A DNA stretch of 12,317 nucleotides from an uncultured archaeon (GCA_964525635.1 CAZGJX010000111.1:1-12317); one strand, 5' to 3'. Shown: positions 1,461-12,014, numbered from the stretch's first letter. The notes: generated by a model not told the origin, from the sequence alone. Made by a program: numbers and translations.

Positions 1461-1590
1461 GATAAAAATTACAGATTATTATAAATAGATAATTGTTTTG
1501 GTACTTATTTATAGGTGTTTTATTGCATATGTTTATATATTAATTGAAATATTATTTATTTATATTTTTACTATTGGATATAAAAATATC

Positions 1591-2910
1591 ATGCCTCAAG
1601 CAATTGGAGTCTTTACTTGGGATAATAAAATTGGTTCAGTATTAGATTTAAAATATCCAGAATCTGCTAAAATTTCAAATAGTTTAACTCAGAAAATTTA
1701 TATGTCTCATGCGTTTAATGAAGAATTTAATAAAGAAGAATTACTCGAAGTCAATTTTAATAATCAAACTATACTTAGTTTTTGTGATAAAAAAAGGGTT
1801 CCAGAGTTTGGATATGAAGTAATTATCCTTTTATTTGATGAAGTTGAAAAAGAAAATTTATATAAATTAAAAGTTGATTTGTTAGAATTTGGAAAAGCTT
1901 TATTTGAAAAACCAAAAGAGGAGAGAAAAGAGTATTTCTCAAATAATATTGATAAATTCTTTCAAAAATCGACAGCTAAAAAAATATTATTATTAGGAAG
2001 AGCAGGTACGGGAAAAACAAGTATAAAGCAAATTATATTTGAAGGTAAAGATCCAAAAACACTTTTATATAATCCTTTAGAACCTACTCGTGGTATCACA
2101 CCCTCAGTTTATTCTTGGCTAGATTTAAAGTTAGGTTTATTTGATACATCAGGTCAAGAACTTAAAGATCTTTTATGTGAGGAAAATCTCGATCAAACAC
2201 TTGTTTTTGAAAATTCTGATGTTATTTTATATCTTTTTGATTATCCTTTATGGAATTCAAAAAGAGAGCTTATTTTCAATGATTTAGAAAAAATCAATTC
2301 AATTATTCAAAAGGAAAAAAACCATATTCAAATAGTTTTATTTCTTCATAAAATAGACTTAATAGAAGAAAGTAATATGGATAAGGAATTGGAGCATATT
2401 ATTAATAGTATCAGAAAAAAATTTGATTTTTCAATTTATTTTACTAGTATCTTTCCTATGTTAATATATAATCTTTATAATGCTTTTTATAACATCGTGA
2501 GTAGCTACTCTGAAGATACTTTAAATATAAAGAAAATTTTAGATGAGATGACTAATGAAAATTCTAAAACTATGTGTTATATTACCAATAAAATTGACTC
2601 AATTATTGTGCAATCAATGTCGAAAGATTTTAATACACTTTTAATCAATCATATCCATAAAATGATTGCCCAATTAACCCAATCTTTTGAGAATATTGCA
2701 GTTAATGATAACATTGATCATCTTATAATATCAAGTTCGAAATCAATAAATACAATTCTTTACTATCTTAACTTACAAAAATTTAATATCAAGAATTTAA
2801 TTATCATTTCAGAAACACTTAGTGCTAACAAATTGATTTTACTCGTAGGAAAATTAAGATTAAAAATAAATAGGCATTATTATTTGGGTAAAAAACAGAA
2901 TAGTTTATAA
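1591..2910 (+). CDS. Rag/Gtr1-like small GTPase with N-terminal longin/uDENN-like domain and C-terminal roadblock-like domain
   Basis: ATG 1591 (MPQAIGVFTWDNKIGSVLDLKYP) preferred over TTG 1498, whose extension looks like translated AT-rich spacer. G1 KKILLLGRAGTGKTSIKQIIF (Gtr1/RagA-like), EPTRG, FDTSGQ, HKID, TSI. The C-terminal ~120 aa show a helix/strands/helix/strands/helix pattern consistent with roadblock. GTPase call is strong; accessory domains are moderate. Confidence 0.88.
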   Translation: MPQAIGVFTWDNKIGSVLDLKYPESAKISNSLTQKIYMSHAFNEEFNKEELLEVNFNNQTILSFCDKKRVPEFGYEVIILLFDEVEKENLYKLKVDLLEFGKALFEKPKEERKEYFSNNIDKFFQKSTAKKILLLGRAGTGKTSIKQIIFEGKDPKTLLYNPLEPTRGITPSVYSWLDLKLGLFDTSGQELKDLLCEENLDQTLVFENSDVILYLFDYPLWNSKRELIFNDLEKINSIIQKEKNHIQIVLFLHKIDLIEESNMDKELEHIINSIRKKFDFSIYFTSIFPMLIYNLYNAFYNIVSSYSEDTLNIKKILDEMTNENSKTMCYITNKIDSIIVQSMSKDFNTLLINHIHKMIAQLTQSFENIAVNDNIDHLIISSSKSINTILYYLNLQKFNIKNLIIISETLSANKLILLVGKLRLKINRHYYLGKKQNSL

Positions 2911-8160: not shown

Positions 8161-9054
8161 TTAATCCAAATTTAAATGAATTTCATTTAAATTAAGGAAA
8201 GTATAAAATAATTCAATTCCTTTATCCTCTTTATTTAATTCTGCTTTATTGATTTCTTTTTTTAATCCTGTTTTTAAATATTCACATCTTTGAGTTAATC
8301 TAATAAAATTCTTAAAAGATAAATATTCAATCATTCCTAATTTTTCCAATCTTTCTAAATGGTAATTCAATTTATTAATATCTAAATTGAATTTATATGA
8401 TAAATGTTCTACTTTATATTTTACATATAGCTCACATTTAATAATTATAATAATTTCTTGTTTTAAGTCTTCAAATTCTGTTTTACTTATTGGAATAAAA
8501 TCTTCTTGATAGATTGAATTTATTATATCTAAAAAAATTTGAAATGTATTGTAGAAATATTCTCTTGTAATAGATGTTCCAAATATCTTTATACTAATAC
8601 CATTATTTGTATAATTACTTTTTAGGTAATTCTTAATTATTTTAATTTTTTCAGATAAATAAGAAGATTTGACCGTGTCAATTTTATGAAGAAATATAAT
8701 TATCTTACAATTTAAAAGAGAATTTAATTCTTTTTTAATTTTTATTATCTTTACTAAAAAGGAGATAATTTTTTCTGATGAATTATTTATATCAAAAACA
8801 CAAGTTATCACATGAGATTGATCAAATACATCTCTATCTTTTAAGAACCAATTTTTATTTTCTTGACCAGCTAAATCAAAAATTCCTAATTGAGAATTGA
8901 ATAGTAAAAAAATATTTGAATTTACTCCTCTTGTAGGTTCTAAAGAGGTATCTAATAATTTAATTGGATTTGCTTTCTGAAAAAATACTTTAGTAATTGT
9001 AGTTTTGCCAGTTGCAGGGGGTCCTATGAGTATAATTTTCTTTTTGTTTGCCAT
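8161..9054 (-). CDS. Rag/Arf-related small GTPase with C-terminal winged helix-turn-helix-like domain
   Basis: G1 GPPATGKTT, EPTRG, FDLAGQ, HKID, TSI. C-terminal VEHLSYKFNLDINKLNYHLERLEKLGMIEY...IRLT matches the ArsR/MarR/TrmB-type wHTH pattern. Confidence 0.88.
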   Translation of the reverse strand: MANKKKIILIGPPATGKTTITKVFFQKANPIKLLDTSLEPTRGVNSNIFLLFNSQLGIFDLAGQENKNWFLKDRDVFDQSHVITCVFDINNSSEKIISFLVKIIKIKKELNSLLNCKIIIFLHKIDTVKSSYLSEKIKIIKNYLKSNYTNNGISIKIFGTSITREYFYNTFQIFLDIINSIYQEDFIPISKTEFEDLKQEIIIIIKCELYVKYKVEHLSYKFNLDINKLNYHLERLEKLGMIEYLSFKNFIRLTQRCEYLKTGLKKEINKAELNKEDKGIELFYTFLNLNEIHLNLD

Positions 9055-9091: not shown

Positions 9092-9772
9092 TTAACTACC
9101 TTGCAAAGAATTATGTAAATTCTTCTCAATAGTTTCAATGATATCATCACATGAATCAAGCATTATTTCAACATATTTAATAATGAGATCTTCAGATAAT
9201 TTTCCAGTTTTACTTTTTTCTTCTAAAATTAATTCACAAAATCCACGAATTGTATTAATTTCGCTCCTAATCTCCAGATTTGCAGATTCTAAAGGAATTA
9301 TTTCATTTTTGTCTAAATAAATTTTTTGAATTTCAATGAAGAAATTTTTAAAAATTGAATTATCATCCGTTAAAATGTTCTTTTCTCCCATTTTTCTGAA
9401 TAATGTTTCTATTCTCTGAAAATATATCGTAGGAATTAATGGATAATCAACATGCCTCAATATTATTATTGCATATAATTGTTTTTTACCTCGAGCAGCT
9501 TCATCTTTTATGTCTACTTTACATATCTGAGAATAAAACTTATCATAATTTAAAATAACAAATTTATTTTTTGTGTTTAAAGCATCTCTGAGTAAATTTC
9601 TTATAAATTGATCATCATCAATTTTTACAGGGGAAAAAATAGCTATGGGTCCTAATATATGGTCATATTTTCCAATTATTATAATAAAAGGATATTGTTC
9701 AATATAATCTTTAAATCCATTGTATGGATACATATAACTTTCCAAATTTTTTTTATTTAATTGATTTTCCAT
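9092..9772 (-). CDS. Putative folliculin/SMCR8-like longin (uDENN) domain fused to a His-less HisKA/DHp-like domain
   Basis: ATG 9772 (MENQLNKK) preferred over TTG 9835. Motifs FIIIIGKYDHILGPIAIFSP and IKDEAARGKKQLYAIIIL; the C-terminus ANLEIRSEINTIRGFCELILEE aligns with the neighbouring kinase H box MSHELRTPLNAIIGFTELLLEE. The CDS itself is secure; the domain calls are by eye. Confidence 0.72.
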   Translation of the reverse strand: MENQLNKKNLESYMYPYNGFKDYIEQYPFIIIIGKYDHILGPIAIFSPVKIDDDQFIRNLLRDALNTKNKFVILNYDKFYSQICKVDIKDEAARGKKQLYAIIILRHVDYPLIPTIYFQRIETLFRKMGEKNILTDDNSIFKNFFIEIQKIYLDKNEIIPLESANLEIRSEINTIRGFCELILEEKSKTGKLSEDLIIKYVEIMLDSCDDIIETIEKNLHNSLQGS

Positions 9773-10023: not shown

Positions 10024-11439
10024 TTATCCAACTAGTCCTTTTTTAATAAATAAATCCTTTAATTCACTAATTATTTGTTGTCGTGCGTTTGCTCTATTTA
10101 TTTGTCTATTAGCGGTAGGCGGAGGTGTTTTACTTGGTGGAGGCGGATGTATAGATTTTGGTGGATTTAATCCCTCTAGTTCCTGTGTCTTGGGCGGGGC
10201 CATTGGTGGTTTCGCTAAATCAGGAGCTTCAATTGGTTTTGTTAATTCTACCATTCTTAATTGATCAACTAATGTAGTTTTAGTTTTATTTGGCAATTTA
10301 ATAGATGCCATTGGTTTTGGAACACCAACTTTTTTAGATACTTTTTGTTTTTTCTTTTTCTTCTTCTTTTTAGCTATATCATCAAATGACACTTTTTGAA
10401 ATGGAACCTCAAATAGTGATCCTGAAATCGTTGTTGGAAGAACTCTATATAATATTTTTTTGATATCAGAGAGATCTGAAGAAATTTTATCCATTAGTTG
10501 AAGATTTATATCTAATATCCTTTGTACTTTCCTATCAATTTCAGGTAATTTATCCTCCTTATCTTGTTCAATTTCTTTACTAAAAATATTCTTAATGCTT
10601 CTTGCAATTTCTGGTTCATTTGAATAAAAGTTATAAATACTTGTAGGTATAATTTCTACTATCCATGATTTTTCATGTTCTATAAATATATTTGTTACTT
10701 TTTCTGTAATATATTCTAATTTAATCTGATAATCTGGATCATTTACAAGATCAGAATCTGCTTTATTTAATAAAATTAAAATATATGGAAATTCATCTAA
10801 ATAACCCAAAATTTCAACTAAATCACTTAAGTATTTTAGTGCTATATCATATCTAACATCATCTTGAGAATCAATAACAAAAATTAGAACGTCTATTTGA
10901 ACAAAAAACCTTTCTGGTTCTTCAAGGTATTCATCGATATGATTTTTTTGTCCTCCTAAATCCCATAAAATTAAATTTAATTTTGATGATTTAAATTCTT
11001 CAACATTAACTCCAACGGTTGGTTCTAGATTTATCAAATCATTATAGTTATAATCATTAACTAATCTGTTTATTAAAGAAGTTTTACCTGCAAAATCCAA
11101 ACCAGCAACAACCACCTTCATTTTTTGTTCTTTTATATAAGTTTTTCTTTTATTCCATGCATTAGCTATTAATTTAGAAGCAATAAAGATTTTTTTTAAG
11201 GTTTTTTCCGAAATTATTGATTGCTCTAAAAAATTATCATATACTGATATATCAATAGAAGCGAAATCTCTAATGGTTTTAATATTATTTTTATTAAGAA
11301 ACACCAATTCTTCTTTTTCAATTCCTTTTAGTTTTTCAAGGGATAGATCTAACACGGTCTTGATATTATCTGGATAGTAATCTAATTCTAAAAATCGATC
11401 ACAAAAATATTTAATTATTGTTTTTGCAGAATCGGACAT
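10024..11439 (-). CDS. Arf-like small GTPase with N-terminal HhH-like domain and C-terminal coiled coil, poly-Lys, Pro-rich linker and terminal helix
   Basis: G1 GLDFAGKTS, EPTVGVN, WDLGGQ, NKAD, TSI; N-terminal LEKLKGIEKEELVFLNKNNIKTIRDFA; K8 run; PPMAPP/HPPPPSKTPPP; terminal ARQQIISELKDLF. Confidence 0.92.
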   Translation of the reverse strand: MSDSAKTIIKYFCDRFLELDYYPDNIKTVLDLSLEKLKGIEKEELVFLNKNNIKTIRDFASIDISVYDNFLEQSIISEKTLKKIFIASKLIANAWNKRKTYIKEQKMKVVVAGLDFAGKTSLINRLVNDYNYNDLINLEPTVGVNVEEFKSSKLNLILWDLGGQKNHIDEYLEEPERFFVQIDVLIFVIDSQDDVRYDIALKYLSDLVEILGYLDEFPYILILLNKADSDLVNDPDYQIKLEYITEKVTNIFIEHEKSWIVEIIPTSIYNFYSNEPEIARSIKNIFSKEIEQDKEDKLPEIDRKVQRILDINLQLMDKISSDLSDIKKILYRVLPTTISGSLFEVPFQKVSFDDIAKKKKKKKKQKVSKKVGVPKPMASIKLPNKTKTTLVDQLRMVELTKPIEAPDLAKPPMAPPKTQELEGLNPPKSIHPPPPSKTPPPTANRQINRANARQQIISELKDLFIKKGLVG

Positions 11440-11651: not shown

Positions 11652-12014
11652 ATGAAGAATGTATATATAGTTGAAGATGATTCAAAAAACATGAAATTAT
11701 ATAAGGCGATTTTAGGGCAATTTCCAGATCTAAAAATTTTTGAAGAAGTTGAAGGAGATTTAGGACTTGAACTTATAAAATCAGGAGATCCTGATTTGAT
11801 TATTTTAGATATTAGATTACCAAAAATGACCGGAATAGAAATTTGTCAGGAGTTAAGGAAGATTGAAAGGTTTAAAGATGTACCAATTATTGCTGTTACT
11901 GCATATGCTATGAAAGGTGATGAAGAACGCATTTTAGAAGCAGGATTTGATGCTTATATTACGAAACCAATTCGTGTTTTGGAATTTAAAAACAAAATTA
12001 AACATTATCTTTAG
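11652..12014 (+). CDS. Single-domain response regulator (CheY/DivK-like receiver), paralog of 1081-1449
   Basis: VEDD, DLIILDIRLP, AVTAYAMKGD, YITKP; about 81 of 119 aligned residues identical to the other receiver by manual count. Confidence 0.96.
   Translation: MKNVYIVEDDSKNMKLYKAILGQFPDLKIFEEVEGDLGLELIKSGDPDLIILDIRLPKMTGIEICQELRKIERFKDVPIIAVTAYAMKGDEERILEAGFDAYITKPIRVLEFKNKIKHYL
11778..11797. repeat. Intragenic palindrome AAATCAGGA-NN-TCCTGATTT (copy 2)
   Basis: Same palindrome at the equivalent codons (KSGDPDL) of the second receiver gene. Confidence 0.6.

Follow-up and report, generated by a model that had tools for sequence, protein, structure and literature searches.

Features of the locus

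We analyzed a 12,317-nucleotide (nt) stretch of DNA from an uncultured archaeon (GCA_964525635.1, CAZGJX010000111.1:1-12317; hereafter, the window), with a focus on an open reading frame (ORF) at 9092-9772 on the minus strand that encodes a candidate regulator of small GTPases. The ORF is stop-free, and its translation is 226 amino acids (aa) long (P0001). The window has a GC content of 24% and contains ten credible genes, all of which are signalling genes: four small GTPases (141-947, 1498-2910, 8161-9054, and 10024-11439), three histidine kinase genes (two complete, with PAS domains, and one truncated), two receivers of a single domain each (1081-1449 and 11652-12014), and the ORF at 9092-9772. 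The homologues of the 226-aa protein come from metagenome-assembled genomes of Lokiarchaeota/Promethearchaeota; therefore, we regard the window as Lokiarchaeial.

Residues are numbered from the ATG at 9772, a start that is also present in P0002, a homologue with 91% identity. The protein consists of a longin domain (residues 25-157; 9302-9700, minus strand) and a helical hairpin of the DHp (HisKA-like) type that lacks the histidine (residues 158-223; 9104-9301, minus strand). Two motifs lie in the longin domain. FIIIIGKYDHILGPIAIFSP corresponds to residues 29-48 and includes Gly41-Pro42 (9647-9652, minus strand), the "GP motif". KVDIKDEAARGKKQLYAIIIL corresponds to residues 85-105 and includes Arg94, a candidate arginine finger, the codon of which is CGA at 9493-9491 (minus strand). 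The minus-strand read of 9520-9470 is ...GAA GCT GCT CGA GGT... around this codon. The sequence-only reading of this DNA had described a folliculin/SMCR8-like longin domain with a retained arginine finger and had proposed an archaeal GTPase-activating protein (GAP) for Rag/Arf GTPases. Both motifs and the arginine codon are present in the translation where that reading had placed them. The gene is also flanked by small GTPases, as it had stated, with 8161-9054 matching Gtr1_RagA (2.6e-16) and 10024-11439 matching Arf (1e-22) and Gtr1_RagA (3.5e-21).

Longin domain and its conserved motifs

The protein was modelled with AlphaFold2 using a 41-sequence alignment (predicted local distance difference test [pLDDT], 83.3; predicted template modelling score [pTM], 0.63). 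In this model, the N-terminal part contains strands β1 (30-37), β2 (41-46), β3 (71-75), β4 (79-89), and β5 (97-107) and helices α1 (54-66), α2 (115-127), and α3 (138-154), and the order of these elements is that of a longin (β-β-α-β-β-β-α-α). Gly41-Pro42 is located at the beginning of β2, and Arg94 is on the loop between β4 and β5 (residues 90-96).

The top fold matches of residues 26-162 were all longins. In an exhaustive structural search, the best matches were NPRL2 chain 8fw5_B (Z 12.9, root-mean-square deviation [rmsd] 2.8 Å over 131 residues), a Lokiarchaeial roadblock-longin protein (8yqg_B, Z 12.1), yeast Npr2 (8adl_S, Z 11.7), and FLCN (6nzd_H, Z 11.4, 2.8 Å over 128 residues, 15% identity); the remaining longins had Z scores of 10.3 or lower. 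NPRL2 also ranked at the top in Foldseek (E 2.8e-4). When the Foldseek list was re-examined, the Z scores were 12.2-13.0 for NPRL2 chains, with 9v0j_A at 13.0 (rmsd 2.9 Å over 134 aligned residues), 11.7 for Npr2, and 10.8-11.4 for FLCN; the FLCN chain 8dhb_J matched at Z 11.0. The 13 best PDB rows (Z 13.0-10.6) were chains of NPRL2, Npr2, FLCN, and NPRL3 together with the Lokiarchaeial longin. VAMP7 was next, and the generic longins VAMP7, AP sigma, and Sec22 had Z scores of 10.1 or lower. The longins of the guanine nucleotide exchange factors (GEFs) DENND1A, Mon1-Ccz1, BLOC-3, and CPLANE matched at Z 8-10. A structural comparison with FLCN, NPRL2, and SMCR8 had been suggested from the sequence; NPRL2 and FLCN were indeed among the nearest structures, whereas SMCR8-C9orf72 chains reached only Z 8.7 (7o2w_A) and 8.2 (6v4u_A).

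Sequence identity to all solved longins was 7-15%. Pfam Folliculin (PF11704) matched residues 87-115 below the threshold (E 0.0092, 16.2 bits vs. a cutoff of 23.3). Sub-threshold matches to this family, which cover the arginine region, were found in 36 of 41 family members (best E 3.8e-5). The 226-aa protein had no Pfam match to NPR2 (PF06218). The nearest models in the ESM Atlas included eukaryotic NPRL2 (PF06218) and folliculin clusters and also a Heimdallarchaeial cluster, partly with PF11704; the scores of this feature search (0.83-0.86) were under the 0.9 level, and these models are leads only.

Gly41 and Pro42 were each present in 132 of 132 aligned family members, Arg94 in 129, and Gly95 in 130. 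Positions 91, 92, and 96, which adjoin Arg94-Gly95, vary freely among the same members. Since the motifs are near-invariant while the flanking positions vary, we do not regard them as chance occurrences. The longin fold, the location of the arginine on the β4-β5 loop, and its conservation in homologues are all as the sequence-only reading had anticipated. Modelling and conservation show that residues 28-157 form a predicted longin domain of the catalytic NPRL2/FLCN/SMCR8 type, in which Arg94 would be equivalent to NPRL2 R78, FLCN R164, and SMCR8 R147.

His-less DHp hairpin

The C-terminal hairpin consists of helices 161-189 and 194-223 in the AlphaFold2 model. A profile of residues 155-226 aligned with the DHp of the kinases in the window and in two related islands (hhalign, 95.8%, E 6.9e-9), and the column of the phospho-acceptor histidine fell on Leu166 (9275-9277). 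Among the 132 members, this column is Leu in 112, Met in 13, and His in 3. The hairpin also matched the DHp of HK853 (4jav_A, Z 8.9, 2.7 Å over 68 residues) and that of LvrB (8vc9_A, Z 8.6, rmsd 1.6 Å), and its Pfam HisKA match was sub-threshold (E 0.037). Foldseek additionally returned kinases that combine a sensor with a DHp, such as LOV-kinase chimeras. Profile and fold show that residues 158-223 are a DHp hairpin in which the phospho-acceptor histidine has been lost. The hairpin is the last element of the protein, and there is no HATPase_c domain; therefore, autophosphorylation is impossible. The hairpin was outside the scope of the sequence-only reading and likely alters the mode of action, with a homodimer and possible docking to two-component proteins.

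Three divergent relatives (P0129, P0131, and P0143) retain the histidine at the phospho-acceptor column, and two of these (P0129 and P0131) lack the loop arginine. This pattern hints that GAP-type and phosphotransfer-type versions could be alternatives. A metagenomic protein of 556 aa (P0145) contains six tandem HisKA-like repeats (Pfam HisKA, 1.6e-37, six stretches) and no ATPase domain; by eye, its repeats are His-less (SFNLRT and SFKLRT vs. SHELRT in kinases).

Distribution and related architectures

We found 215 homologues at E <=1e-3, all of which are annotated as hypothetical. The family is narrow, with only 26 clusters at 50% identity in a search of 1.8 billion representatives. The gene is single-copy, with one match in its own genome (4.45 Mb, 100% complete). 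Among 301 sampled Asgard genomes, full-length matches (E <1e-59) were present in 29, including that of the window. Twenty-seven of these genomes belong to the GTDB family of the window and two to a sister family. One relative carries a Hodarchaeota label. The 24 sequencing runs linked to the stretch are all DNA metagenomes and are mostly labelled as salt marsh.

The search of representatives also surfaced PAS-fused relatives of approximately 390 aa. Two of them are metagenomic (P0133 and P0134) and carry the PAS domain N-terminal to the longin; in P0133, the GP motif is gone (YGA) and Arg-Gly is kept. Lokiarchaeial forms of this architecture also align at GP and Arg. A dedicated search for longer fused forms (397-2000 aa) found none, which is weak evidence only. 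Stand-alone Lokiarchaeial longins of 162 aa (L043:640-1125 and L044:763-1248, both plus strand) aligned with the family at both GP and Arg (hhalign, 96.2%). They have YHQKLGP and NARG/QARG motifs, and one is in a closed 4.36-Mb genome. Conserved Lokiarchaeial proteins of 345 aa (L038:985-2019, plus strand, and L039-L042) are fusions of a longin to a C-terminal P-loop GTPase-like domain, and these also aligned at GP and Arg (hhalign, 94.8%). The fusions read YFDQVIGP ... LARGG; the NKxD position reads NKFH, and no DxxGQ motif was seen in them.

Gene neighbourhood and candidate partner GTPases

Gene order was compared across 34 loci, each from a different genome: the window itself, loci of 28 GTDB species representatives, and five contigs from protein look-up. 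Their ORFs were classed by comparison with the proteins of the window. In 20 of the 34 loci, the gene that immediately follows in the same orientation encodes an orthologue, or a fragment, of the GTPase at 8161-9054 (hereafter, G3). The gap to G3 is typically 9-50 nt, and in the window G3 begins 37 nt after the stop codon. The order of the longin-DHp gene and then the Rag-type GTPase gene on the same strand in most relatives is consistent with an operon. On the upstream side, 19 of the 34 loci have an orthologue of the Arf-like GTPase at 10024-11439 (hereafter, G4) as the adjacent gene, which is divergent in 16. In nine loci, the downstream neighbour is a kinase. The remainder of the island is made up of PAS kinases and receivers, also around members that are only 26-43% identical, and both were present in seven of the seven islands listed with Pfam domains (the window and six loci). 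Across the 301 genomes, the C-terminal domain of G3 had a strong match in 24, of which 21 also carry the longin-DHp gene and three do not; these genomes are related to one another, and such counts are therefore not independent. In three genomes, the downstream gene is a short Rag-type GTPase fragment of 92-148 aa (L010:5517-5960, L019:5081-5356, and L034:7174-7521); these fragments may be decayed copies or frameshifted genes.

G3 (8161-9054, minus strand) combines a Rag-type G domain with a winged-helix-like domain at its C-terminus, and its model had a pLDDT of 91. The nearest structure to its G domain is human RagD (2q3f_B, Z 21.8, rmsd 1.9 Å over 170 residues), and a Lokiarchaeial RagA-like protein (8yl2_A, Z 21.3) and RagC (Z 17.5) also matched. 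Its switch II reads D60-x-x-G63-Q64, in which G63 and Q64 are invariant. The C-terminal part has a helix-helix-helix-hairpin pattern with weak winged-helix Pfam matches in some members, and G3 may be a GTP-switched DNA-binding protein. The profile of this domain also matches ORFs of approximately 120 aa, the size of a winged helix-turn-helix, in other Asgard families. A second G3 paralogue is encoded on contig C121 of the same genome. We consider G3 to be the best candidate for the substrate of the 226-aa protein.

G4 (10024-11439, minus strand) is a second candidate substrate. It is an Arf-like GTPase with an N-terminal extension of approximately 100 aa ahead of the G domain and a basic, proline-rich tail. 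In the part at 10024-10400, a run of eight lysines is followed by a proline-rich stretch and then by a short terminal helix-like segment. The GTPase at 1498-2910 (plus strand) is of the Gtr1/RagA type and has an additional N-terminal domain of approximately 150 aa. We considered whether this domain is a relative of the longin; however, there was no sequence similarity (hhalign probability, 0.2%). A literature search did not find a paper describing the LokiRagO/LokiRagM and 8yqg PDB entries.

Predicted complex with the downstream GTPase

We modelled the G domain of G3 (residues 1-185) together with GTP, Mg, and the longin-DHp protein (residues 20-226) in two copies, using a separate alignment for each protein. 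The interaction prediction score from aligned errors (ipSAE) was 0.77 (0.79, 0.77, and 0.76 in the individual runs), whereas the best of three controls reached 0.19. The pLDDT of the partners was at least 87 (88 in each run), and the agreement of contacts between runs was at least 98%. In calibration, 58 of 80 solved complexes and two of 110 mismatched pairs scored at or above the pass mark; this calibration is only approximate for the present model, which used its own alignments and ligands.

Confident contacts involved residues 36-42, 62, 65-66, 94-97, and 99 of the first longin copy and residues 37-43, 62, 66, and 94-95 of the second. On the GTPase, they involved residues 4-6, 13-14 (P-loop), 36-46 (switch I), 55-65 (switch II, including Q64), 68, 75, 78-79, 110, and 112. 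G41 and P42 of the first copy contact GTPase residues 62, 64, and 65 in switch II, and the GP loop of the second copy contacts β1 and the interswitch strands. By standard P-loop alignment, residues 13-14 of the GTPase would correspond to Ras G12/G13, the site at which an arginine finger passes. A complex model had been proposed in the sequence-only reading as a check on whether R94 enters the nucleotide pocket; with the downstream GTPase, the R94-K97 loop was placed at the P-loop and the switch surface. The model supports binding and shows a likeness to known complexes, not catalysis.

Proposed function and alternative explanations

At the domain level, the original interpretation was right: the longin of this protein is of the catalytic (NPRL2/FLCN-like) type, and its candidate arginine finger is conserved. 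Its placement in a GAP family holds for the type of longin domain, as judged by the fold, the GP motif, the arginine, and NPRL2/FLCN as the nearest structures; however, the protein is not an orthologue of folliculin or SMCR8. We rejected folliculin/SMCR8 proper (a longin plus a DENN domain) as an identification: the protein is only 226 aa long, has a C-terminal DHp hairpin and no DENN domain, is single-copy, and is closest to NPRL2 in structure, its Pfam Folliculin match is below the threshold, and its structural match to SMCR8-C9orf72 is weak.

We lean toward the interpretation that the 226-aa protein is a two-part regulator of Rag/Arf-type small GTPases and acts as a homodimeric arginine-finger GAP, which we consider somewhat probable. 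A homodimer is expected because the gene is single-copy and no NPRL3 or DEPDC5 partner is present. The DHp hairpins would pair as the usual four-helix bundle, which would set the two longin domains side by side. According to the controlled complex model, the GTP-bound Rag-type GTPase encoded downstream would span both longins: one protomer would grip the interswitch strands, and in the other, the GP loop would face switch II and R94 would point at the P-loop and γ-phosphate. R94 would then stimulate GTP hydrolysis as an arginine finger. The Arf-like GTPase encoded upstream may be a second substrate. We speculate that the dead DHp surface may dock receivers or kinases of the island and thereby tie the phosphorelay state to the GTPase switch. 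A complete circuit of this kind, in which the His-less DHp is the docking site for phosphorylated receivers or PAS kinases that gate the R94 GAP activity towards the Rag-type winged-helix GTPase (from sensor kinase to GAP, Rag, and transcription), is doubtful. If true, it would be a TOR-less archaeal equivalent of GATOR1/FLCN-Rag nutrient signalling.

Several points weigh against the proposed GAP. GAP activity and the homodimeric assembly are hypothetical, and the equivalence of R94 to the known fingers is putative. The edge of GAP longins over generic longins is modest, at approximately 1-3 Z units, and the Pfam Folliculin match did not reach the threshold. Profile searches of PDB sequences with the whole family and with the longin part alone gave chance-level matches only (E >=0.057) and no longin GAP. 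Regarding the partner, 14 of the 34 loci do not have a G3-type GTPase as the downstream neighbour, and in eight of the 301 genomes that carry the longin-DHp gene, no strong match to a G3-type GTPase was found. The calibration of the complex score is approximate, as described above, and the score may recall the solved GATOR1-Rag, FLCN-RagC, and C9orf72-SMCR8-ARF1 structures. In addition, most longin/roadblock dimers are GEFs or platforms (PMC10933270).

The last of these points favours a different function, in which the longin is a platform that binds the neighbouring GTPases as a GEF, a holder resembling a guanine nucleotide dissociation inhibitor, or a scaffold (cf. Mon1-Ccz1, TRAPP, DENN, and Ragulator), and Arg and GP serve binding or folding. 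GEF longins match the fold of the present domain, and the complex model speaks for binding alone and is silent on chemistry. However, the pair of GP and Arg has been reported as absent from non-GAP longins (PMC12290439) and is near-invariant here, the best structural matches are catalytic GAP subunits, and the modelled interface takes in GTPase residues 13-14 and Q64. We consider this function unlikely.

We assign a similarly low probability to a role as a two-component accessory protein, in which the His-less DHp heterodimerizes with a PAS kinase or sequesters a receiver, the longin is a sensor or adaptor, and the link to GTPases is indirect. The hairpin is clearly homologous to the DHp of kinases in the same island, and kinases and receivers accompany the gene in all of the islands listed with Pfam domains, with a kinase directly downstream in some loci. 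The LOV-kinase chimeras returned by Foldseek, the PAS-fused relatives P0133 and P0134, and the three divergent members that keep the acceptor histidine, two of them without the arginine, also fit this role. However, it leaves the invariance of GP and Arg, the pairing with GTPase genes, the longin-GTPase fusions, and the confident complex model unexplained. Moreover, it is compatible with a homodimeric GAP and does not exclude one. That the protein shares only the fold, with the motifs as lineage-specific structural features of no GTPase-related role, is very improbable: identity to solved longins is low and no database E-value is significant, but independent weak signals agree (Pfam Folliculin in 36 of 41 members, fold ranking, Atlas neighbours, gene order, fusions, and the complex model).

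Significance and comparison with known systems

In eukaryotes, nutrient sensing involves the control of Rag/Arf GTPases by the longin GAP complexes GATOR1, FLCN-FNIP, and C9orf72-SMCR8, and mutations in these complexes occur in cancer syndromes and in amyotrophic lateral sclerosis/frontotemporal dementia. The question at stake is whether the arginine-finger mechanism is older than eukaryotes. Tran et al. reported that genes for GTPases and for longins generally do not share an operon in Asgard archaea (PMC10933270). The value of the present locus is a defined and testable pair of a regulator and a GTPase in a group in which GTPases rarely adjoin their regulators. The small size and good predicted folding of both proteins, together with a confidently predicted complex, make a direct test practical. 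The fusion to a His-less DHp also provides a way to ask how two-component and small-GTPase signalling joined in the archaeal lineage nearest to eukaryotes.

The underlying idea has already been published. The GP motif of catalytic GAP longins, situated in the β1-β2 loop or where β2 begins, was defined by Novák Vanclová, Jackson and Dacks (2025). They found it together with an arginine finger in Asgard "FLCN/SMCR8-type" longins and suggested that these might act as GAPs on Arf-related or Rag GTPases of Asgard archaea (PMC12290439). Liu et al. described Asgard NPRL2-like longins in 2020/21, many of which are fused to two-component signalling domains (10.1101/2020.10.19.343400). GAP-like or nutrient-signalling roles were proposed in both studies. 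In the literature searched, which did not include the sequences of the 15 Asgard longins of PMC12290439, we did not find a description of the 226-aa family, the His-less DHp, the conserved pairing with genes for a Rag-type winged-helix GTPase and an Arf-like GTPase, or the modelled complex.

Among known systems, NPRL2 and yeast Npr2, the catalytic subunits of GATOR1/SEACIT and GAPs for RagA/B and Gtr1 (finger Arg78), provide the best structural match for the longin domain. Both NPRL2 and the 226-aa protein have the GP motif and a loop arginine, and a Rag-type GTPase is the partner of the former and the product of the gene adjacent to the latter. However, their identity is 7-9%, the NPRL2-specific C-terminal domain is replaced by the His-less DHp hairpin, and NPRL3 and DEPDC5 partners are absent. 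FLCN (FLCN-FNIP; yeast Lst7-Lst4), the GAP for RagC/D (finger Arg164), resembles the 226-aa protein in its longin fold and the weak PF11704 match, and the adjacent GTPase is closest to RagD. It differs in having a DENN domain and an FNIP partner, neither of which has a counterpart here, and folliculin is approximately 580 aa long. In the SMCR8-C9orf72 (CSW) complex, an ARF GAP (finger Arg147), the GTPase is bound on two longins, one with the arginine loop and the other holding the GTPase, as in our model.

In the structure of ARF1 on C9orf72-SMCR8, one longin grips the GTPase and the other provides the finger (PMC8213707). However, the structural match to this complex is weaker, DENN and WDR41 are absent here, and both longins would be copies of one protein. 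The proposed homodimer would pair two longins, as do the eukaryotic heterodimers NPRL2-NPRL3, FLCN-FNIP, and SMCR8-C9orf72. The hairpin resembles the HK853-type DHp (HisKA) in profile and fold and retains the E-x-R and N-x-I-x-G-F box near the acceptor site; it differs in that the acceptor histidine is Leu/Met in 125 of 132 members and HATPase_c is absent. The 226-aa protein belongs to the same class as the published Asgard longins with GP and Arg (PMC12290439; 10.1101/2020.10.19.343400), here fused to a DHp two-component module.

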